Assembly: GCA_964410475.1 (NCBI GenBank)
Contig: CAYPGH010000001.1
Coordinates: 1 to 52,902 of the forward strand
Reading direction: 5' to 3'
DNA length: 52,902 nucleotides
Origin: an uncultured Candidatus Saccharibacteria bacterium
GTDB lineage: Bacteria; Patescibacteriota; Minisyncoccia; Phycocordibacterales; UBA2100
The notes below the pieces were generated by a model. It did no database searches, had not been told where the DNA came from, and saw only the letters and a list, made by a program, of their open reading frames with translations. Made by a program: the position numbers and the translations under genes. Positions 8,130 to 51,120 of this stretch are shown here, in pieces (the first letter of the stretch is position 1; the number at the start of each line of letters is the position of its first letter).

Positions 8130-9410
8130 CTAAACTTTCGAGTTTTTAACTATTCTCAAATCTGGTAGGACCATTACAAAATCGGATTTCAATCCTGCCT
8201 TCTTCAACCTCTTCATAATTACATCGGCATATTGCCATGACATAAGAACGACATAATCCGGTTGTTGTTTAAATAATATCTTTTCGTGTACTACGGGGAT
8301 ATGTTTTCCCGCCAAATACTTGCCCAATTTTAATGACGTCGGTAGCTCTGCCAGATAGGGAATATATTCGGTATCGATGCCGTAGTAATTCAAGAGCGTT
8401 GTGGCTCGTCCCGGGCACGATTTTCCGACGATGGATTTACCGGACCTTTTTACCTTTATCAGGAAATCCATAAATTCAAGACGCGCCTTCTGTGCGCGCC
8501 GTGCGAACTTCTTGTACGTTGCGAGCTTGTCTAACCCGGCCTCCTTCTCCAGTTTCAGCAATTGGGATACACGCGGACTCACGTCTCTTCCCTTACCCTT
8601 CGCGACATGCACGCGGATATTGCCGCCGAAATTACGCCCCCGCTCCACATCGGTCACAGTAAAGTCGTACTGATCAAACAGGGAGATGAGTGAGCGGAGA
8701 GAATATGTCCTTAGATGCGCGTGGTAGATGGTGTCGAATTGACCCACTTCTATCACGTCGAGAAGATAATGCATTTCAGCAATAAATACGCCGTCGTCCT
8801 CCAATAGATTGTGTATTCCCATGATGACCTCACCCATCTCCTGCACATGGGCGAACACGTTCGTCGTGATTATTATCGCCGCCCTGCCGTATTTTTTCTT
8901 GATTTGTTCCGAGGTCTTGATGTCAAAAAACGACTGAATAGTCCGAATGCCATCGGCATTTGCGATTTTAGCGATATTGGTCGGCTCAATCCCCAAGATC
9001 CTCACACCCTCCCTTTTAAAACCGCTAAGCAAAGTGCCGTCGTTTGAACCGATGTCTATAGCGAGATCTTTTGAGGTCAGATTATATTTTTCAATGAGAG
9101 AGATGCATATCTGCCTCTGATAATCTGCCAATGGTTTGGAGATGCCACTACGATATGGATAGTCGGGGTAATACAGTTCTTTACTGTCTACGCAATAATC
9201 TATTTGGACATCGGTGCACGTTTGACACCATACCATGCGCAATGGGTACGTTTTCTCGGGTTCATTAAGTGTCTCTTTGGTAAGCAGGGTGTCACAGAGC
9301 GGTTGGTGCCCGAGATCCAATATGACGTGTACTTTTGACGAATTACAGATTTGACAGCGCTGGACATGCCCTGTTTTCACTGAATGATGTTTAGGGTATG
9401 TCGATTTCAT
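8130..9410 (-). CDS. NDP-hexose C-methyltransferase (Zn-ribbon + Methyltransf_13/14 type, TylCIII-like)
   Basis: ORF 8130..9482. I start it at ATG 9410 (MKSTYPKHH...) because the upstream 24 codons are a translation of repeat copy A. Contains CQICNSSKVHVILDLGHQPLCDTLL, WCQTCTDVQ, AIDIGSNDGTLL. Confidence 0.8.
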   Translation of the reverse strand: MKSTYPKHHSVKTGHVQRCQICNSSKVHVILDLGHQPLCDTLLTKETLNEPEKTYPLRMVWCQTCTDVQIDYCVDSKELYYPDYPYRSGISKPLADYQRQICISLIEKYNLTSKDLAIDIGSNDGTLLSGFKREGVRILGIEPTNIAKIANADGIRTIQSFFDIKTSEQIKKKYGRAAIIITTNVFAHVQEMGEVIMGIHNLLEDDGVFIAEMHYLLDVIEVGQFDTIYHAHLRTYSLRSLISLFDQYDFTVTDVERGRNFGGNIRVHVAKGKGRDVSPRVSQLLKLEKEAGLDKLATYKKFARRAQKARLEFMDFLIKVKRSGKSIVGKSCPGRATTLLNYYGIDTEYIPYLAELPTSLKLGKYLAGKHIPVVHEKILFKQQPDYVVLMSWQYADVIMKRLKKAGLKSDFVMVLPDLRIVKNSKV

Positions 9411-9536
9411 CCCGTTAGAGGCAGGAAGCAACGCTTCCCGTACCTGATTTATTGCCAATAACCGACCCTGCTGATTTTCCACGTAGATGCTTCATATATT
9501 AAGTTTGCCTTCCGCGGCCTCTAACGGGATTCATGA
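9406..9536 (-). repeat. Long-stem element (LSE) copy A, 131 bp
   Basis: Arms ATCCCGTTAGAGGC (9409-9422) and GCCTCTAACGGGAT (9517-9530) form a 14-bp perfect stem. Second stem GGAAG 9424-9428 / CTTCC 9509-9513, with 1-nt and 3-nt bulges. Identical to copy B at 130/131 positions. Confidence 0.9.
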
Positions 9537-9617
9537 CCGAATTGTTGTCTCTTTAGCGGTTCGCAATTATAGCATCTCGCTTTCGTGGCTCAAGGACAGT
9601 GTTTCTGCCGGAGTTTT

Positions 9618-10577
9618 TCATTTTCCGCCCGCTTTACGTCGTCGATAAAAAGCGACCGTCTTTTTAAGACCACTCTCGAAACGAATCTTTGGCTTCCATC
9701 CCAAAGCCTTCTGCGCTTTCAAAGACTTAAGCGCGTAGCGGAAATCGTGGCCGAGCCTGTCCTCAACATGCTCTATCTGCCGCCGATCTTTTCCGAGGGC
9801 GCGTACGAGCATTTGTGCGACTTCTATATTAGGTAGTTCATCATGCCCACCGATGTTGTATATCTCACCGCTCTTTCCTTTGTGGAACGCGAGATCAATA
9901 CCTTTCACGCCGTCCTCGACGTAGAGCCAGCTACGCACATTTTTACCGCTACCATAGAGCGGTACGTTCTTTCCTGCGAGCAGGTTGGTAATTGAAAGTG
10001 GAATGAGTTTCTCCTCGTATTGTCGCGGACCGTAGTTGTTCGAGAGGCGCGTAATCACGATGTCGAGCCCAAAGGTGCGATTGTATGCGAGGACGAGCAT
10101 GTCGGCGCCTGCCTTTGATGCGCTGTATGGGCTACTCGGAGATAGCGTGTCTCCTTCTTTCGAGGGACGCGCATTCTTTGTAAGTGAGCCATACACCTCG
10201 TCGGTCGATATGTGATGAAAGCGTTGTACACAATGGCGTTTCGCGAGGACGAGCAGGTTATGCGTGCCGACGATGTTGGTCTCGATAAAAATGTCGGGAT
10301 TCTTGATACTCACATCGACATGGCTCTCTGCAGCGAAATGGATGATGTGTGTCGGATTATATTTCTTGAATATTCGCTCCATGGCCGCGAGGTTGCGGAT
10401 ATCTGCTTTCACGAACGAGTAATTCTTCGCCCTTGAGATCTCGATGTTTGCGAGGCGGCCTGCATAGGTAAGCACGTCGACGTTTATGAAGCGGTATCGA
10501 GGGTATTTTCGCACTGCATAGTTGAGGTAATTACTACCGATAAATCCCGCACCCCCGGTAACAAGAATAGTTTTCAT
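9618..10577 (-). CDS. rfbB: dTDP-glucose 4,6-dehydratase
   Basis: MKTILVTGGAGFIGSNY, HFAAESHVD, YSASKAGADMLV, and a length of 319 aa. Sits immediately downstream of a sugar-1-P nucleotidyltransferase. Confidence 0.9.
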   Translation of the reverse strand: MKTILVTGGAGFIGSNYLNYAVRKYPRYRFINVDVLTYAGRLANIEISRAKNYSFVKADIRNLAAMERIFKKYNPTHIIHFAAESHVDVSIKNPDIFIETNIVGTHNLLVLAKRHCVQRFHHISTDEVYGSLTKNARPSKEGDTLSPSSPYSASKAGADMLVLAYNRTFGLDIVITRLSNNYGPRQYEEKLIPLSITNLLAGKNVPLYGSGKNVRSWLYVEDGVKGIDLAFHKGKSGEIYNIGGHDELPNIEVAQMLVRALGKDRRQIEHVEDRLGHDFRYALKSLKAQKALGWKPKIRFESGLKKTVAFYRRRKAGGK

Positions 10578-10693
10578 GATGGCAATATAAGAGAGCCGAC
10601 TTGCCCCGTAGCCGACGCGAAGCGTCGCGGTACTGGGGTGAATCCCGCACCACCCGAGACGAGCATCGTTGTCTCTTTCATATTGCGCTTCAT
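10574..10693 (-). pseudogene. Orphan 5' stub of a different SDR epimerase/dehydratase gene
   Basis: Starting at the ATG that follows copy B, the frame reads MKRNMKETTMLVSGGAGF (a Rossmann-fold N-terminus), then loses similarity in a GC-rich imperfect hairpin. It stops at a TGA overlapping the rfbB ATG. Confidence 0.5.
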
Positions 10694-10819
10694 CCCGTTA
10701 GAGGCAGGAAGCAACGCTTCCCGTACCTGATTTATTGCCAATAACCGACCCTGCTGATTTTCCACGTAGATGCTTCATATATTAAGTTTGCCTTCCGAGG
10801 CCTCTAACGGGATTCATGA
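10689..10819 (-). repeat. Long-stem element (LSE) copy B, 131 bp
   Basis: Arms at 10692-10705 and 10800-10813. The only difference from copy A is 10798 a versus 9515 c, in the 3-nt bulge. The TAG stop of the rfbA-like gene (10804-10806) lies inside the arm. Confidence 0.9.
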
Positions 10820-11553
10820 GGTGCGCGCTTTTTCATAAAGAGGGAAGCCTTATGCAAAGCCTCGATGTTGCCAATATCGAACCACTCTTTTTTGAGAACA
10901 TGAGCGTTCAGAGACCCCTCCGCGAGATATAGGGAATTTACCGACGTAATCTCATATTCGCCCCGTTCACTTGGAGACACCCTTCTGATTTTATCAAAGA
11001 CGCTGTTGTCATATATATAGAAGCCGGTAACCGCCATGTTACTTTTTGGTTTGGACGGCTTCTCCTCAAGACTTATTATTTTACCTCTCGGGTTCACCTC
11101 CGCTATGCCAAAGCGCTTTGGGTCGGAGACTTTCTTTAAAAACACAGTGGCGCCCTTTTTGAATTTCTTGATAGCGGGTGAGATATCATCCATGAATATA
11201 TTGTCTCCCAAAAAAAGCACGCAGTTATCGTCTCCTATGTAATCCTCTGCAATATGGAGTCCATACGCGATGCCATTCGGCTCGTTTTGAATGCCGTAGA
11301 CTATCTGTATCTGTCTGGCGGTTGTCGATGTTGTTGGTACAAAGTGCTGTCCTGAACCAAGCAACTTTACGAATGCGTCAATGTGATGAGGAGAGGTTAC
11401 GACCATTATCTTCGTTATACCCGCATCAACCAGCTTCTCTATAGCATAGTAGATGACAGGCTTATTAAATACAGGTAATAGATGTTTGTTTGTAACAAGG
11501 GTTAGCGGGTGCAATCTGATGCCAGACCCTCCTGCGAGGATGACTGCTTTCAT
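10804..11553 (-). CDS. rfbA: Sugar-1-phosphate nucleotidyltransferase (glucose-1-phosphate thymidylyltransferase-like, short form)
   Basis: ORF 10804..11580. I start it at ATG 11553 (MKAVILAGGSGIRLHPLTLVTNKHLLPVFNKPVIYY). The substrate is inferred only from its position upstream of rfbB. Confidence 0.75.
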   Translation of the reverse strand: MKAVILAGGSGIRLHPLTLVTNKHLLPVFNKPVIYYAIEKLVDAGITKIMVVTSPHHIDAFVKLLGSGQHFVPTTSTTARQIQIVYGIQNEPNGIAYGLHIAEDYIGDDNCVLFLGDNIFMDDISPAIKKFKKGATVFLKKVSDPKRFGIAEVNPRGKIISLEEKPSKPKSNMAVTGFYIYDNSVFDKIRRVSPSERGEYEITSVNSLYLAEGSLNAHVLKKEWFDIGNIEALHKASLFMKKRAPHESR

Positions 11554-11674
11554 CCCGTTAGAGGCAGGACGCGGAAACAAAATATGCTCCGCACACTGGC
11601 ATGCTAATGCTAATAAATTTCGATTTCATAAGTAAATTAGCGATGAGTCGTCCGCGGCCTCTAACGGGATTCAT
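11549..11674 (-). repeat. Long-stem element (LSE) copy C
   Basis: Arms at 11552-11565 and 11657-11670, identical to those of A/B. The interior is unrelated. The second stem is GGACG/CGTCC (a compensated change relative to A/B). It ends directly at the rfbA-like ATG. Confidence 0.85.
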
Positions 11675-11831
11675 CCCGTTAGAGGCAGGAAGCTTGCCCC
11701 GTTAGAAATATCGTTTCTAACGGGGCTTGCACTTCCGACTCGGAAATTATTGCTTGTAAGCATACAACTGATGATAAACATATAGAGAATGTAGCACAAC
11801 CGGAACTACCGCGGCTTCTAACGGGATTCAC
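11670..11831 (-). repeat. Long-stem element (LSE) copy D, with a nested hairpin
   Basis: Arms at 11673-11686 (ATCCCGTTAGAGGC) and 11814-11827 (GCTTCTAACGGGAT; one position gives a G-T/G-U pair). Nested perfect hairpin GCCCCGTTAGAAA-TATCG-TTTCTAACGGGGC at 11696-11726. Together with copy C it forms a 30-bp perfect palindrome at 11657-11686. Confidence 0.85.
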
Positions 11832-30195: not shown

Positions 30196-31410
30196 ATGAC
30201 ACGCAGACGACCGCAGCCACTTTTCCCTCATTTGCAATATTGCACGCGCTGCTGTGTTCCGGAGACACAGGAAGGTATCAGGTTTGACGAAATGAGTATC
30301 TGCCAGGCATGCCAATCCTCGGAACAAAAGATTCATATCAATTGGGTGGAGCGGGAAGGTCAGCTTCGAAAGATATGTGATGAGGCTAAAGCGAAGGCGG
30401 GCGATAACTACGATTGCATTATTCCGATATCGGGCGGGAAAGACAGTGCATATCAATTGCACGTTCTAACAAAAATATATGGCATGAAGCCACTTGCGGT
30501 TACTCATAGTCATAATTGGTGGAGCGAGAGCGGGTGGTACAACCTCCAGAATACTCTGGAGACTTTTAACGTAGACCATATCGTATTCACTCCGAATAGG
30601 GGGCTCATAAATCGATTGGCAAAGAAATCCGTCGAAATGATCGGCGACGTGAGCTGGCACGATCATTCGGGAATCGGCTCCGTCCCGATCGGAATTGCGG
30701 TGCGCTTCAAGATTCCTCTTCTCGTCTGGGGGGAATCGCTCGCGGAGAATTCTGGAAGAGCGACCTATGAAGATCCCGTGCACAAGTGGGACAGGGAATA
30801 TCACCTTAAACAATCGGCGAAAAAGGATGCTGATCAGATGGTGGGCGAGACGCTTTCTTCGCGCGACCTCTATCCGTACATCGTTCCTTCAGAAGAGGAG
30901 ATGAAATCGGTAGGAGTGTGGGGAATACACTTGGGCGATTATATTTTTTGGGATGATGAGCGTCAGACGGAATTTTTGCGCGATACGTACGGGTGGAAAG
31001 AAACGGAAATGGAAAACACCTACAAGCGCTACAAGAGTGTCGAAGACATTATGTCGGGTATGCACGATTTCACCTGCTACCTCAAGCGCGGTTTTAGCCG
31101 TACGACCGAGCAAGCATCGATTGATGTGAGGAACGGCCTCTTGACGCGCGACGAAGCTTTTGCGCTCATCAGAGAGCATGAGTCCGAGCGGCCTGAAGCG
31201 CTTGATTACTATCTGAAAATTACTGATTCGACAGAAGAAGAATTCTATGAGGCCATGAAGAAATTGCGTTTGCCACAGATGAAGGATGTCGACATTCCGG
31301 TAAAGCAGAAAAATCACAAGAACGAAGAGAGACTTGTTCCGTTTCCCGAACAGCTCATTCAGAAATTCAATAAAACCGATTCTAAACGCAAGTATCTCGA
31401 TGAAATATGA
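30196..31410 (+). CDS. N-acetyl sugar amidotransferase (WbpG/PseA-like PP-loop enzyme)
   Basis: Contains YCTRCCVPETQEGIRFDEMSICQACQ (Zn-ribbon) followed by ISGGKDSAYQLHVL (PP-loop). Confidence 0.8.
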   Translation: MTRRRPQPLFPHLQYCTRCCVPETQEGIRFDEMSICQACQSSEQKIHINWVEREGQLRKICDEAKAKAGDNYDCIIPISGGKDSAYQLHVLTKIYGMKPLAVTHSHNWWSESGWYNLQNTLETFNVDHIVFTPNRGLINRLAKKSVEMIGDVSWHDHSGIGSVPIGIAVRFKIPLLVWGESLAENSGRATYEDPVHKWDREYHLKQSAKKDADQMVGETLSSRDLYPYIVPSEEEMKSVGVWGIHLGDYIFWDDERQTEFLRDTYGWKETEMENTYKRYKSVEDIMSGMHDFTCYLKRGFSRTTEQASIDVRNGLLTRDEAFALIREHESERPEALDYYLKITDSTEEEFYEAMKKLRLPQMKDVDIPVKQKNHKNEERLVPFPEQLIQKFNKTDSKRKYLDEI

Positions 31411-31534
31411 ACCTCGTTAGAGACCGCAGTCACACAAAATACACACTACAATGGTACATTCACTTTTCTATTTCACAAATTATATGAGTGACAATAACAA
31501 TACACGACCGCGACCTGTCTCTAACGGGGTGAAC
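31407..31534 (+). repeat. Long-stem element (LSE) copy F (plus-strand sense)
   Basis: ATGAACCTCGTTAGAGACCGCAG ... CGACCGCGACCTGTCTCTAACGGGGTGAAC. The stem 31411-31424 with 31517-30 is 14 bp including one G-U pair. The element fills the whole gap between the amidotransferase TGA and the GTG at 31529. Confidence 0.8.
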
Positions 31535-32881
31535 AAGTTATTTTTTGATAATTCGATTGGTCGTATCATCGAAAAAATACGCGCTAAGGAAATATCCACG
31601 TCAGATGTATTAAACGCATCGATAGAGAACATAAAAGAGTTTGACCCGAAATATTTTGCGTGGGTCACATATCGAGATTCGAAGTGGAAAGCCCCAGAAT
31701 CGCGCGCGCCTATGGACGGCCCCGTTTTAGCATCACGGTTTCTTGATGGAATCCCGGTTGGCATCAAGGATATATACAACACGTATGATTTTCCAACTGA
31801 GATGGGAAGTCCCCTGTGGAAAGGGTTCACCCCAGGGAATGACGCACGTGCGGTTTTCAATCTTAAGCGGCAAGGCGCCATTGTAGTCGGCAAAACGGTA
31901 ACGGCAGAATTTGCTGTTCACGCACTCAATAAGACACTCAATCCCCACGACGTGAGCAAAACGCCGGGCACGTCTTCAAGCGGCTCGGCGGTCGCGCTCG
32001 CGCTCGGCATGGTGCCGATAGCTGTTGGGTCACAAACTGCCGGCTCAATCGTACGCCCAGCCAGTTTTTGCGGTGTGTACGGATGCAAACCATCGTTCGG
32101 CACTATCCCACGCACTGGGACTTTGAAGACTACTGACAGTTTGGATACTCTCGGATTCCTGGTTATTCATCAAGAAGATTTACGACGCGGGTTCGATTCG
32201 ATGCGTGTTTCGGGATTGGATTATCCGATTAGTAATTCAGTGCTTTGCGACGAGTCGCGGCAAAAGAGACCTTCCGGTAGGCCGTGGCGCGTGGGATTTG
32301 CAAAAACACATACGTGGAAGGACGCTCCCAAATATGCAAAGGACGCGATAGAAGGATACGTCAAGAAACTAGCGGTCGAGAAAGATATTGACATTACAGA
32401 AGCGGAACTACCCACACAATTACAGCGTGCACATACTATTCATGAGACGATCTACAACAAAGCGCTGTCGTACTACTTTAAAGGCGAGCACAAACAATCA
32501 GATTTCGTCTCGCCGATTATGAACGAGCTTATCGCAAAAGGGAGCTCGATTGAACTCGATGTATATGCAAAAGCGACTGATGATCAGATGGAGCTTATCC
32601 ACGACATGGACGACTTCTTTTCTGGTTACGATATTCTCATTTCTTTGAGTACCGCGGGCGAAGCGCCTCCGCGTGATATTGCTGAATTACCTGATCCCGC
32701 TCTTATGTGGACACTCGCGCACCTTCCTGTCGTCGCGGTGCCGCAATTCAAATCTCCGAGCGGATTACCGTTTGGCATGCAGGTCGTCGCCAGAAAATAC
32801 AATGACTATCTACTGTTTGATTTTCTTGATAATCTTGCCGCAAGAGATCTCATTTCTAAAACGGGTGTACATATTGTATGA
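31529..32881 (+). CDS. Amidase-signature family enzyme (GatA-like amidase)
   Basis: ORF 31451..32881. Contains GIPVGIKD and GTSSSGSAVALALG (amidase signature). I propose the GTG start at 31529, by analogy with the other LSE-flanked starts. ATG 31484 or 31451 remain possible. Confidence 0.7.
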   Translation: MNKLFFDNSIGRIIEKIRAKEISTSDVLNASIENIKEFDPKYFAWVTYRDSKWKAPESRAPMDGPVLASRFLDGIPVGIKDIYNTYDFPTEMGSPLWKGFTPGNDARAVFNLKRQGAIVVGKTVTAEFAVHALNKTLNPHDVSKTPGTSSSGSAVALALGMVPIAVGSQTAGSIVRPASFCGVYGCKPSFGTIPRTGTLKTTDSLDTLGFLVIHQEDLRRGFDSMRVSGLDYPISNSVLCDESRQKRPSGRPWRVGFAKTHTWKDAPKYAKDAIEGYVKKLAVEKDIDITEAELPTQLQRAHTIHETIYNKALSYYFKGEHKQSDFVSPIMNELIAKGSSIELDVYAKATDDQMELIHDMDDFFSGYDILISLSTAGEAPPRDIAELPDPALMWTLAHLPVVAVPQFKSPSGLPFGMQVVARKYNDYLLFDFLDNLAARDLISKTGVHIV

Positions 32882-46731: not shown

Positions 46732-46740
46732 ACTTCATAT

Positions 46741-46890
46741 TTCTTAACGGGGTGGTACCCCGTTAGAAACAGGAAGCGAAGCTTGCCGTCTGAAAATTAC
46801 GGAAGGTGAACGATGTACCTCTTTATATTCGAGCAAGAATCCTAATCGCGCAATAACTTCCGCAGCTTCTAATGGGGTGGTACAATCCCG
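46741..46890 (-). repeat. Long-stem element (LSE) copy E (diverged), flanked by half-sites
   Basis: Arms CCCCGTTAGAAAC (46758-46770) and GCTTCTAATGGGG (46865-46877), with 2 non-Watson-Crick positions. The second stem GGAAG/CTTCC is conserved. There is an extra palindrome AACGGGGT-GGT-ACCCCGTT at 46746-46764. Confidence 0.7.
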
Positions 46891-49627: not shown

Positions 49628-50289
49628 TTCCCAAAGTCTAGCCGACCGGCTAGGATATGGGATAATAAGAAGACATGGGAAAGATCGAAGAAAAAGCAAA
49701 GCAAAAAACGAAGAAGAATGCACACGTACAAGATGCAATTCTTCTATACTTTCGCACCGTAGGAGCAATGGCGGCCGTTATACTTTCACCTAATCCGACC
49801 ATGTACAAACTCTTGCGTCAGATGGATCCTAATCCTTCAGGAAAGCGGAATGCCACGCATCGCATCAGAGAAGCTGCAAAACGCCTTGAGGCAGGTGGTC
49901 TCTTGAAGCGGGATCACAAAGGTCAATTTGTTCTCACCAGGAAAGGAGAACAGCGATCTGTCTTTTTAGAGAGCATGCAGAACATGCACATGATGAAACC
50001 GCACCATTGGGACGAGAAGTGGCGTATTGTTATTTTTGACGTGTGGGAGCGCAGGCGCGGGATACGTCAGCGACTGCGGGCGCTTCTTGAGAAGGCAGGG
50101 TTTGTGCGTCTGCAAGACAGCGTATGGGTGTATCCGTATCCATGCGAGGAATTTGTGGCATTTATACGCGCTGACCTACGGCTTGGCCCGGGCATGCTCT
50201 ATATCATTGCAGAAGAGATAGAACATGACCGGCATTTGAAGGAACATTTCGGCATCCCAATATCATGACGGTCGGCTAGACTTTGGGAA
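49628..50289. repeat. 21-bp perfect inverted repeats bracketing a single gene
   Basis: TTCCCAAAGTCTAGCCGACCG (49628-49648) is the exact reverse complement of CGGTCGGCTAGACTTTGGGAA (50269-50289). The right arm begins at the nucleotide after the TGA stop (50266-50268). Confidence 0.9.
49675..50268 (+). CDS. Winged-helix + Cas2-fold (PaaX-like C-terminal) domain protein
   Basis: The N-terminal part ends in a wHTH-like LLKRDHKGQFVLTRKGEQ. The C-terminal WRIVIFDVWERRRGIRQRLRALLEKAGFVRLQDSVWVYPYP follows the beta-alpha-beta pattern of Cas2/PaaX C-domains. Confidence 0.55.
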   Translation: MGKIEEKAKQKTKKNAHVQDAILLYFRTVGAMAAVILSPNPTMYKLLRQMDPNPSGKRNATHRIREAAKRLEAGGLLKRDHKGQFVLTRKGEQRSVFLESMQNMHMMKPHHWDEKWRIVIFDVWERRRGIRQRLRALLEKAGFVRLQDSVWVYPYPCEEFVAFIRADLRLGPGMLYIIAEEIEHDRHLKEHFGIPIS

Positions 50290-50609
50290 TCGTTTATTGT
50301 AGAGCGGGAGATTTTTCCGAAGCGAGGCAATGGGGATGAATGGCGCGTAGAATTTGAAGCGGCCTGTTTTATTCAAAGCGCAGAATTCACCGACAGCTTG
50401 GCCGTTAGTTTATTTTTTGATATCCCGCATCTCGTTTTTTTCTTTATTTTTTTTTGCATGCAATTTTGTCTTTTAGTTATCCACACATGCGCGCGTAAAA
50501 ACACTTATGCGCACATATGAATGCAATAATTAAAAAGTAAAACGCATCTTCGCATGTTTGTGCGCAAGTGCGGGTCGAGTTAATACAAAAAATATTTCTA
50601 TTTATATCT

Positions 50610-50694: not shown

Positions 50695-50729
50695 AAACAC
50701 ATCGCTCTTGATGGGCGATGTGTTTTTTT
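50695..50729 (+). terminator. Intrinsic terminator
   Basis: ACACATCGC (50697-50705) pairs with GCGATGTGT (50715-50723) around a 9-nt loop, running into a T tract that ends at 50729. Confidence 0.75.
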
Positions 50730-51014
50730 ACCCCGTTATAAGCAGAACGCCCCGCGGCTTGCCGCGGAGATGAATGCTAGTCGGGCTTAGCGAACTCGGG
50801 GTTTAATCCATGCGCAGAATTCCCCGACAGCTTGGCTGCGGGGATGAATGCGCATGAGGAAAGGAGGGTCGGGGAAAACGTAGTTTTCCCCGTGGAGGAG
50901 AGCAGAGAGCCTGTAATCAGGCGAACGTTGAGAACCGAGTGGTTCTCAAAATAAAATACCGCGACAGCTTGGCTACGCGGTAGTTTATTGTTCCGCGTGA
51001 GCTTCTAACGGGGT
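50730..51014 (-). repeat. Long-stem element (LSE) copy G, with a large (257-nt) interior
   Basis: ACCCCGTTATAAGC (50730-50743) pairs with GCTTCTAACGGGGT (51001-51014), 14 bp with one mismatch. A 1-nt bulge plus GAAC/GTTC second stem echo the other copies. The interior holds two of the GACAGCTTGGC hairpins. Confidence 0.6.
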
Positions 51015-51120
51015 TTAGTCCCACACCTTTCGTTTTGTAGCTTCGGATTATCGCGATACGATAAGACGAAAGGTGGGGTATTTTATGATAGGATGCCCGA
51101 ACACTAACTCCGCGCTATCA

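Follow-up and report, generated by a model that had tools for sequence, protein, structure and literature searches.

Hairpin repeats at the start codons of CPR bacteria share their ends with a GIY-YIG nuclease gene

Elements A to G in a 52,902-nt window

Two nearly identical hairpin-forming repeats lie in a minus-strand dTDP-sugar operon of an uncultured Candidatus Saccharibacteria bacterium. We analysed a stretch of 52,902 nt (the window) in which an earlier note had described them as two 131-bp repeats. As it held, positions 9406–9536 equal 10689–10819 save for one base (c9515 versus a10798), and the similarity ends sharply at both borders. The claimed fold was recovered as well: a 14-bp stem (ATCCCGTTAGAGGC/GCCTCTAACGGGAT) with an internal loop of 1 nt against 3 nt and, in each copy, a GGAAG/CTTCC stem and a GGAAGC-AAC-GCTTCC hairpin. 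The long stem stands, but its outermost A-T pair does not, its bases belonging to two TTCA flanks and not to the element. On either strand the predicted fold is stable, at -46.7 kcal/mol (z -3.3) for one and -40.9 kcal/mol (z -3.4) for the other. Each 131-bp repeat resolves into a 120-bp element (A, 9410–9529; B, 10693–10812), TTCA on either side and three shared bases, TGA, at the right.

Both elements rebuild a start codon. Element A (minus strand) is a short, gene-less member of the GGAAGC subfamily, oriented like its minus-strand host gene, with two perfect arms (9411–9422 and 9517–9528) and the terminal pair T9410/A9529. Its 4-bp duplication, TTCA on the plus strand and TGAA on the gene strand, occupies 9406–9409 on the host-gene side and 9530–9533 upstream. 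T9410 and the host-side duplication together rebuild the ATG (9410–9408, minus) of a C-methyltransferase gene, whose Pfam methyltransferase zinc-binding domain begins 18 codons further on. The old ATG is retained at 9534–9532 (minus), about 30 nt downstream of a promoter-like TTGAGC-16-TATAAT (10/12; 9593–9566, minus). An internal 26-codon ORF (MKHLRGKSAGSVIGNKSGTGSVASCL; 9415–9495, minus) stops at a TAA within the arm, 4 nt ahead of the host ATG. Element B (minus strand), one base off A at a10798, is flanked by its duplication at 10689–10692 on the host side and 10813–10816 upstream. By sequence and strain alignment, its rebuilt ATG (10693–10691, minus) starts what is left of a dehydratase N-terminus, 39 codons long (...MLVSGGAGF...), with a TGA that overlaps the rfbB ATG at 10577. 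The pair had been said to fill intergenic gaps; instead, each adjoins a start codon, and the arm of B contains the TAG (10806–10804) that ends the upstream nucleotidyltransferase (rfbA-like) ORF.

The window holds not two copies, as first thought, but at least seven members (A–G), one nested mini-copy and one remnant. The arm motif, allowing up to 3 mismatches, matches 15 times where chance predicts 3.45, and 0 of 100 shuffles reach 15; these matches make up elements A–G and the mini-copy. Element C (11553–11669, minus; 117 bp) belongs to class I (arm-CGC-GGACG ... CGTCC-T-arm), and its flank rebuilds the ATG (11553–11551) of an rfbA-like gene. Element D (11674–11826, minus; 153 bp) stands in tandem with C, sharing the TTCA at 11670–11673 and bounded by another at 11827–11830. 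Nested within D at 11697–11725 is a mini-copy consisting of arms only, C-CCCGTTAGAAAT-ATC-GTTTCTAACGGG-G, between CTTG flanks (11693–11696 and 11726–11729). Element E (31412–31529, plus), also class I, is oriented with its plus-strand host. Its left duplication (31408–31411) provides the upstream gene's TGA, the right one lies at 31530–31533, and G31529 plus TG forms a GTG in frame with an amidase gene.

Two members lie off start codons. Element F (46758–46877, minus) is intergenic, between TGGTA flanks (46753–46757 and 46878–46882), with a 3'-arm remnant, tttcttaacgggg, beside it at 46740–46752. Element G (50731–51013, minus; 283 bp) has family arms, TTTA flanks (50727–50730 and 51014–51017) and a very highly structured interior (predicted fold about -132 kcal/mol) that encodes no GIY-YIG protein. 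Apart from the twins A and B, the interiors of the window copies are mutually unrelated. Four copies gather in one polysaccharide locus, and no full-length, nuclease-coding copy was found in the window.

Strain variants differ in which insertions they carry. An empty-site comparison, one of the checks the earlier note had proposed, revealed that C is missing, exactly, in variants L002, L003 and L004: the empty allele reads ...CGGGA TGAA AGCAGTC and the filled one ...CGGGA TGAA (117 nt) TGAA AGCAGTC. Alternatively, C could have been lost by a deletion between C and its tandem neighbour D, whose ends are identical. The same three variants carry the mini-copy of D as an insert at site A, which lacks it in the window; in L003 it could derive from D by gene conversion.

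A CPR-wide family placed on start codons

The family extends far beyond this genome. Just outside its arms, YCCCGTTAGARRC and GYYTCTAACGGGR, lies a duplicated 4-mer that is mostly TGAA. Further copies, which the note had proposed to seek, turned up in a GTDB scan requiring both exact arms: at least 120 loci, most of the named ones among the matches listed belonging to CPR/Patescibacteria of many classes. All relatives were collected with arm-based patterns, so the arms owe part of their apparent conservation to the search itself. A perfect 4-bp flanking repeat accompanies 84 of 120 copies among the matches listed, against 23% in the control. Within the GGAAGC subfamily, 49 distinct sites include 39 perfect duplications and 46 ATG starts. 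Core lengths across the wider family cluster at 110–125 bp.

The two arms change together. The terminal inverted repeats span 13 bp including the terminal pair, class I cells are paired at about 97.5–99.2%, and AT and GC switch jointly at arm positions 10 and 11. Covariation, another check that had been suggested, is evident in class I, with both partners altered in 7 pairs and an observed value that none of 500 shuffles attains.

Copies sit on start codons in the orientation of the host gene. With copies oriented by internal asymmetry alone, the terminal purine plus TG forms ATG or GTG in 106 of 120 (about 88%) among the matches listed; F, G and about 12% of copies elsewhere lie off start codons. 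The host ATG is kept at the left, and the element's last base (A or G) together with the duplicated TG rebuilds the host ATG or GTG. Copies that have C..G as their terminal pair still show ATG at the left flank and now GTG at the right. Element orientation is coupled to the host-gene strand. One idea about this placement, translational bypassing between duplicated GAA codons, was dropped because copy A lies outside any coding overlap and nothing supported it.

No family in Rfam or in the literature searched accounts for these repeats, in keeping with what had been surmised from the arms. Over the whole window, Rfam gave no matches at gathering thresholds, and relaxing to E up to 10 gave chance-level ones outside the elements. 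Literature searches on the arm sequence, on CPR MITEs and inverted repeats, and on GIY-YIG genes in CPR retrieved no such element; one paper reports just horizontal transfer of GIY-YIG genes in Patescibacteria. A mobile promoter or terminator was considered and rejected, as no consensus sites were found within the elements; the sole good promoter-like site is the one upstream of A.

The full-length form and its probable relay-frame derivatives

The same arms and flanks enclose a nuclease gene. A full-length form of about 275–285 bp consists solely of one 94-aa, single-domain GIY-YIG ORF, with the product MNPVRD...RFLSLTG or MNPVRG...RFLPLTG* and a TGA that overlaps the rebuilt host ATG (ATGA). 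Gene callers report a nuclease overlapping the downstream gene by 4 nt. The arms are themselves coding: they specify residues 3–6 (P-V-R-D/G) and the last codons (L-S/P-L-T-G), and the Asn codon ahead of them is partly host sequence. Residue 6 and the fourth-from-end residue come in the pairings predicted from nucleotide complementarity (D-S 48, A-A 7, N-F 5, G-P 4), with only 5 exceptions.

The protein belongs to a large and recognisable group. It matches the Pfam GIY-YIG domain (PF01541) with E = 1e-17 over residues 10–76 of 94. A search at E <= 1e-5 returned 4214 protein clusters, and the best 120 of the 4214 are nearly all 94 aa with the same termini. In a structure model the arm-encoded tails are low-confidence ends beyond the fold. 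The UPF0213 proteins (BH0048, YazA, YhbQ) and Slx1 are the best sequence and fold matches, with BH0048 (1zg2, E = 4e-10) and Slx1 (TM-score about 0.6 relative to query) as top structural ones. Slx1 cuts branched DNA, stem-loops and junctions. Unlike the 94-aa protein, these relatives are stationary housekeeping genes or complex subunits, without arm-encoded tails, inverted-repeat ends or a multi-site distribution.

In gene-less copies of about 115–120 bp the arms persist, often together with a relay frame that is still open. A, B and other short copies of this kind probably arose from the full-length form by internal deletion. Across copies, the frame ending at the arm TAA has a median open length of 23 codons, compared with 10 and 14 in the other two. 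It is open for at least 20 codons in 60% of copies and in 29% of controls with shuffled interiors. Of 131 copies, 63 have a length divisible by 3. In the GGAAGC (A-type) subfamily, a 39-codon frame runs open from the old ATG to the arm TAA in 24 of 42 copies. That frame is broken by a TAA in both A and B, and the 26-codon ORF of A is its remaining 3' portion.

The 3' arm, CTCTAACGGGATGA, channels every frame to the host start. One of its three frames stops at the TAA 4 nt ahead of that start, and the others stop at the overlapping TGA or read in frame into the host ORF. Since all three end at or enter the host start, ribosomes crossing an element would be passed to the host gene, and the arrangement suggests translational coupling between the two.

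Mobility and competing readings

In our reading, A and B are copies of a mobile element that forms hairpins and is non-autonomous, and their duplication is recent; we put the probability of this reading as a whole at about 0.72. It places them in a CPR-wide family that inserts at start codons, has a GIY-YIG parent, would be mobilised by that nuclease and would remain translationally coupled to its hosts. The first interpretation of the pair lacked two decisive features, namely the placement on and rebuilding of start codons and the descent from a 94-aa GIY-YIG gene with the same ends.

Insertion would borrow the host's expression signals and then repair them. The target would be a host start codon, A|TGNN, whose TGNN becomes duplicated. 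With the left copy, the promoter, ribosome-binding site and ATG of the host would be kept and would now start the element ORF (MNPVR...); on the right, TG would join the element's last base, A or G, to give the host gene a new ATG or GTG. The element ORF would terminate at the TGA overlapping the host ATG and pass its ribosomes on. The nuclease may recognise the arm hairpin or a cruciform, cut at its base, and move full-length as well as short copies, the latter in trans. We know of no GIY-YIG nuclease that forms covalent intermediates of the recombinase type, so rejoining would require host functions.

More tentatively, at somewhat below even odds, the family may represent a new class of prokaryotic transposable element: a lone GIY-YIG ORF whose terminal codons are its inverted repeats, which lacks a promoter, ribosome-binding site and start of its own, inserts at A|TGNN, hands ribosomes over from stop to start and leaves derivatives that keep a relay ORF. 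At about 285 bp it would be, to our knowledge, the smallest autonomous transposable element.

The nearest published system is that of the Ssn nucleases and their hairpin repeats. Ssn nucleases, 94 aa long and made of a single GIY-YIG domain, are encoded by genes with hairpin repeats on either side, and such repeats cluster near surface genes; the repeats carry a conserved 5' GTCA-Y, and the authors likened the repeat-gene-repeat layout to an insertion sequence, in a paper silent on CPR and on start codons (Chenal et al., Nat Commun 2025, PMC11893778). Our family shares the small nuclease, its bracketing by inverted repeats that also occur as many gene-less copies, the orientation of the repeats, their proximity to surface-structure genes and a short motif ahead of the stem (GTCA-Y in Ssn; here TTCA-T, continuing into CCCG). 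The hairpins might accordingly be sites of a domesticated resident nuclease, specific for single strands, that tunes DNA uptake and recombination near surface-polysaccharide genes after the model of NTS and SsnA in Neisseria, spreading as a by-product. This reading, which is compatible with a selfish element, we consider unlikely while giving it real weight. The four window copies in the polysaccharide locus speak for it, as does a full-length copy, P0001, that sits in a polysaccharide cluster.

Several features set the CPR elements apart from Ssn. The two half-sites flank the gene as a single long hairpin, not two local ones, pairing across the gene and forming the first and last codons of its ORF. 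Copies land exactly on the start codon of a host gene, duplicate 4 bp and rebuild the start; a restriction-type role leaves that precision, the duplications and the relay frames unexplained. The gene-less Ssn repeats are hairpins of about 30 nt, which the nested mini-copy alone resembles, and the gene-less CPR copies measure 115–120 bp and have relay ORFs. In our own implementation, the degenerate Ssn motif (HGTCWY-stem-loop-stem-RNCYNB) matches nothing in the window, where the flank is TTCAT rather than GTCWY. Nor does the protein single out Ssn: BLASTP finds it about equally close to B. subtilis YazA (UPF0213; 43% identity, E = 1e-14) and to a hairpin-flanked GIY-YIG protein of the rhizobium S. 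meliloti (2e-13).

An ordinary MITE, moved by the DDE-type transposase of some insertion sequence with the same ends and carrying the GIY-YIG ORF as a passenger, is improbable. Cut-and-paste DDE transposition typically goes with inverted-repeat ends and a duplication of fixed size, here 4 bp, and known MITE parents encode DDE transposases. Across 183 loci, however, paired arms are never separated by over 300 bp and never enclose a transposase gene; beyond the short copies, only members of 275–283 bp were found. The 120 GTDB loci among the matches listed have no recurring neighbour gene, and among longer members coding capacity is confined to the GIY-YIG ORF, which runs end to end with the arms serving as codons. 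REP-type Y1 transposase genes, present in 5 loci, were rejected as partners since their own hairpins are unrelated to the arms.

MITE-likeness as such, which the earlier note had proposed by way of Neisseria Correia elements, is upheld. A and B are 120 bp without a transposase-length ORF, and the family combines inverted-repeat ends, a 4-bp target duplication, many unrelated sites and strain polymorphism with empty alleles. Kinship with Correia/NEMIS proves only generic: both are short, non-coding, multi-copy and co-transcribed, with terminal inverted repeats, target duplication and long hairpins. Correia elements have 26-bp repeats and duplicate TA; here start codons are the target (A|TGNN), TGNN is duplicated, the arm sequences are dissimilar and a GIY-YIG nuclease is the sole coding relative. 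REP/RAYT and IS200/IS605 systems offer another likeness, hairpin repeats spread by a small single-gene nuclease that is flanked by the same repeats and acts on single-stranded hairpins, but their enzyme is an HUH Y1 transposase and leaves no target duplication, unlike the elements here.

A role mainly as a cis-acting structured RNA that benefits the host, whether as RNase III site, translational regulator or mRNA stabiliser, seems to us a poor prospect. The long-stem fold is stable, orientation follows the host gene and copies lie inside transcribed operon junctions. Against this, interiors differ wholly from copy to copy, Rfam is silent, and G-U wobbles, which would betray RNA-specific selection, have no strand bias (15 sense, 19 antisense); duplications, strain polymorphism and a protein-coding parent point to mobile DNA. 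Supply and colleagues are said to have described MIRU (mycobacterial interspersed repetitive units) in 1997 as intercistronic repeats, oriented with the operon, whose small ORFs overlap the flanking stop and start codons. The logic is the same, with translational coupling preserved. MIRUs differ in being direct repeats in tandem that lack inverted ends, target duplication and an associated nuclease.

The earlier note also drew an analogy to the bulged hairpins of integron attC sites. A reading as attC-like single-strand recombination sites bounding gene cassettes has in its favour a bulged hairpin with a variable centre between successive genes, but can be set aside with near certainty: the cores run opposite to the RYYYAAC...GTTRRRY of attC, with GTTAGAG in the 5' arm and CTCTAAC in the 3' one, the strain-variable unit is the element alone and not gene plus site, flanking 4-mers are variable and duplicated, no cassette array was seen and no integrase is among the recurrent neighbour genes.

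If A and B do descend from a start-codon-inserting element mobilised by its GIY-YIG nuclease, GIY-YIG would join the enzyme classes that drive insertion-sequence-like mobility in bacteria, and the question raised with Ssn, whether repeat-nuclease-repeat units move, would gain a concrete and testable answer. Landing on start codons, borrowing expression signals and repairing the damage through a rebuilt start and coupling would suggest how a selfish element persists in very compact genomes that offer hardly any room between genes. Arm-nuclease pairs might also serve as sequence- or structure-specific DNA tools. For annotation, thousands of CPR genes named "GIY-YIG nuclease" or "excinuclease ABC subunit C" would be products of such insertions, and so would many extended or mis-started host ORFs, among them the 450-aa and 476-aa ORFs of the window.

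An element family beyond copies A and B

The repeat pair that was first noticed is real, and it opens onto something much larger than first seen. Realignment bore out the near-identity of 9406–9536 and 10689–10819: c9515 versus a10798 is the sole difference, and similarity stops abruptly at both borders. The described fold is likewise present, with its 14-bp stem, 1-nt/3-nt internal loop, GGAAG/CTTCC stem and GGAAGC-AAC-GCTTCC hairpin, and stable folds are predicted for either strand (−46.7 and −40.9 kcal/mol, z ~ −3.3). The pair stood, but the two-copy picture in the earlier note was incomplete, with seven elements in the window and a wider family outside it.

The window elements share inverted-repeat ends, here called arms. 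With up to 3 mismatches permitted, the arm ATCCCGTTAGAGGC has 15 matches against 3.45 expected, a count reached by no shuffle, and pairing up these matches defines the seven elements. A (9410–9529), B (10693–10812) and C (11553–11669) have minus-strand host genes and TTCA flanks; D (11674–11826, TTCA) stands in tandem with C, and E (31412–31529, TGAA) is oriented opposite to the others. The last two are F (46758–46877, TGGTA) and G (50731–51013, TTTA). An arms-only mini-copy (11697–11725, flank CTTG) is nested in D, and a 3'-arm remnant lies left of F. Short direct repeats bracket every window element, the ends are conserved (YCCCGTTAGARRC ... GYYTCTAACGGGR), and interiors are mutually unrelated except for A versus B.

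The family is widespread in CPR genomes. Scanning GTDB, one genome per species, for both arms (CCCGTTAGARRC, 80–110 nt, GYYTCTAACGGG) matched at least 120 loci, with core lengths tightly clustered at 110–125 nt. Among the loci listed by name, nearly all are CPR/Patescibacteria MAGs of many classes (Saccharibacteria, many Parcubacteria/Paceibacteria lineages, Levybacteria, Berkelbacteria, Kazan and Kerfeldbacteria), and a few are labeled Elusimicrobia or Omnitrophota. When metagenomes were scanned with the left end of A (CCCGTTAGAGGCAGGAAGC), 63 loci were recovered, and most of them carry 118-nt relatives of A at other sites.

Base pairing between the arms is conserved. The earlier note had proposed looking for further copies and for covariation; copies beyond A and B occur in both the window and GTDB, and the arms covary. 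Across 132 unique copies, A-T and G-C switch in concert at arm position 10 (70/57, 5 mismatches) and position 11 (58/61, 13 mismatches), and G-U wobbles show no strand preference (15 versus 19). Two architectures occur. In class I ends (arm-CGC-GRTCGC ... GCGAYC-T-arm; 59 copies), 97.5% of cells are paired and 7 pairs change on both sides, which no shuffle equals. A second helix covaries too: 34 copies have G-C and 20 have A-U. Class II carries a local GC-rich hairpin beside the 3' arm, which in A and B is GGAAGC-GTT-GCTTCC on the gene strand.

Start codons, target duplication and strain variants

Family members sit on start codons. Read along the neighboring gene, almost every copy has the form xxATGAA-T-CCCGTTAGARRC ... 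GYYTCTAACGGG-A-TGAAxx. Orienting 120 copies by internal asymmetry alone (YCT ahead of the 3' arm) gave 106 in which the terminal purine and the following TG make ATG or GTG. A perfect 4-bp repeat flanks 84 of the 120, versus 23% in shuffled pairing, most commonly TGAA (48), TGGA (11) or TGAG (10), and in 92 an A immediately precedes the left repeat. The terminal pair is T..A in 103 copies and C..G in 14; with C..G the right flank is GTG and the left flank remains ATG. These counts indicate that the terminal pair is the element's own, that the duplication is 4 bp and that the original site was a start codon, A|TGNN. The A-type relatives from metagenomes occupy 49 distinct sites, with a perfect duplication in 39 and a rebuilt ATG in 46.

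In the window, A, B, C and E follow this pattern; F and G belong to the minority off start codons. A lies on the methyltransferase ATG (9410–9408), C on the rfbA ATG (11553–11551) and B likewise on a start codon. At E, a GTG at 31529 is in frame with an amidase gene, and the left duplication is the upstream gene's TGA. A and E are opposed on one replichore (GC skew is monotonic), so orientation follows the host gene, not replication. ORF calls run host genes into elements (8130–9482 and 31451–32881; a public call of 450 aa in the retrieved locus L001). N-termini annotated downstream of elements are likely wrong in many CPR genomes.

Strain variants show recent DNA-level change at the dTDP-sugar locus. 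Along the minus strand, D and C precede an rfbA-like nucleotidyltransferase gene; next come B, a 39-codon dehydratase N-terminal remnant, rfbB, a spacer of 80 nt, A and a C-methyltransferase gene. We compared six variants of this polysaccharide locus from metagenomes. C is exactly absent from three (...CGGGA TGAA AGCAGTC, versus ...CGGGA TGAA (117 nt) TGAA AGCAGTC when filled), and these same three have a mini-copy inside their site-A copy. Deletion between the tandem C/D ends could also account for the absence of C, and gene conversion from D for the mini-copy at site A.

Two further features lie in this locus. The 39-codon ORF between B and rfbB (10574–10693, minus strand; MKRNMKETTMLVSGGAGFTPVPRRFASATGQVGSLILPS and a TGA overlapping the rfbB ATG) looks from its sequence like the decayed N-terminus of a second NAD-dependent dehydratase or epimerase. 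This stretch varies among strain variants, and the remnant suggests a past rearrangement at the junction. The rfbB–A spacer contains a sequence closely matching a sigma-70-like promoter (TTGAGC-16-TATAAT, TG upstream; 9566–9593, minus strand), so the methyltransferase may have its own promoter, with A within the first nucleotides of its transcript.

A GIY-YIG form and the frames of the short copies

A longer form of the element, taken as the parent of the short copies, encodes a nuclease-like protein. This ~275-nt form, with the same arms and TGAA flanks, occurs at six metagenome loci and one GTDB locus (L107). Five copies are intact; the other two (L144 and L187) are frameshifted with identical flanks and are probably one site. 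The form is a single ORF from the old host ATG (MNPVRGNQFYYVYVIRSKKD...REKYLKSGMGKRYLKNRLKRFLPLTG and stop), whose TGA overlaps the rebuilt host ATG, and its protein has a GIY-YIG domain (PF01541, E = 1e-17). A protein search found 4214 clusters at E <= 1e-5. The best 120 of these are nearly all 94 aa, with termini MNPVR[DGAN] and RFL[SAFP]LTG, and are annotated at source as GIY-YIG nuclease or "excinuclease ABC subunit C" from CPR MAGs. In gene calls, the 94-aa gene overlaps the next gene by 4 nt, again within a polysaccharide cluster.

The protein termini carry the imprint of the arms. Residue 6 and the fourth-from-end residue pair as D-S (48), A-A (7), N-F (5) and G-P (4), with 5 exceptions, matching the expectation for complementary codons, a constraint without protein-level rationale. 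In an AlphaFold model (mean pLDDT 84.6), arm-encoded residues form low-confidence tails outside the fold. Among solved structures, UPF0213 BH0048 and Slx1-type structure-specific endonucleases come nearest, with UvrC and I-TevI far behind. We found no 94-aa GIY-YIG gene of this family in the window. There is good support for placing A and B, as gene-less members, in an element family that is start-codon-associated and GIY-YIG-derived, and we infer that the nuclease mobilizes the elements.

The short copies also carry open frames toward the host gene. Read from sequence, one frame of the 3' arm CTCTAACGGGATGA stops at a TAA 4 nt before the host start, a second stops at a TGA overlapping that start and the third continues in frame into the host ORF. 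The 5' arm gives an immediate stop in two of three frames, at the duplication TGA or the arm TAG, and the upstream genes at E and B end exactly by these stops. The arm-TAA frame is open for a median of 23 codons, versus 10 and 14 in the other frames, and reaches at least 20 codons in 60% of copies versus 29% with the interior shuffled. In 63 of 131 copies the element length is divisible by three, and in 34 of 107 an ORF from the old ATG spans the whole element, ending at TAA or ATGA. In A's subfamily, 24 of 42 copies retain an intact 39-codon ORF (MNPVRG...SNKSGTGSVASCL) although interiors diverge; in A and B this ORF is broken and begins again at an internal ATG (9495..9415; 10778..10698). 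Short copies may be under selection to keep ribosomes flowing to the host start, and we infer translational coupling of element to host gene. Mycobacterial MIRUs functionally resemble these relay ORFs.

Relation to other hairpin–nuclease systems

Among published systems, the Ssn family (PMC11893778) comes nearest. An Rfam search gave no match, in keeping with the earlier note, and we found no description of the family in the open literature, searched by sequence and topic. Ssn proteins, single-domain GIY-YIG nucleases of 94 aa, cleave single-stranded DNA exclusively, beside an oriented hairpin repeat (PMC11893778). These repeats flank the Ssn genes in an arrangement resembling an insertion sequence and are concentrated near surface genes, and mobility is proposed but not shown; CPR and start codons are absent from that paper (PMC11893778). 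The systems share protein type and motif-plus-stem logic (TTCA-T-CCCG here, GTCA-T-TCCCG in Ssn). The present family does not match the repeat pattern published for Ssn. Its arms extend across the gene and form part of the coding sequence, and it adds start-codon capture, a 4-bp duplication and relay ORFs.

The 94-aa protein resembles B. subtilis YazA about as closely as it does a hairpin-flanked rhizobial GIY-YIG protein. An Ssn-like layout occurs on S. meliloti pSymB (L196, 1664101–1665495), where a 96-aa GIY-YIG gene has hairpin repeats GGATTCCTGTGAC...CAGGAATGAGG on both sides. These repeats gave no match to the published Ssn-related repeat (SRM) pattern as implemented here; pattern or implementation may be too narrow.

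Element G has family arms and its TTTA duplication and does not encode the GIY-YIG protein. Its 257-nt interior is predicted to be extremely structured (~ −132 kcal/mol on either strand), with three similar hairpins of the type CCCCG..CAGCTTGGCT..CGGGG followed by ATGAATGC. A 35-nt piece of G is repeated at 50368–50402, and a 93-nt stretch resembles L081 3851–3932. About 460 nt upstream of G lies a gene with a PaaX central (Cas2-like) domain (49675–50268); we found no evidence linking it to the elements.

Five CPR loci (L073, L079, L099, L106 and L020) have REP-associated Y1 transposase genes no more than a few kb from family members. Judging from the HUH motif, we take them to be IS200-like, COG1943-type. 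Three or four of these loci have their own short GC-rich hairpin beside the Y1 gene (for example GTCCAAAGCCGAGCTTTGGAC and CGAGGTTCGACCTCG), on both sides in L079 and L106. Y1 gene and hairpin form a second hairpin-plus-nuclease system in these genomes, unrelated to the arm family.
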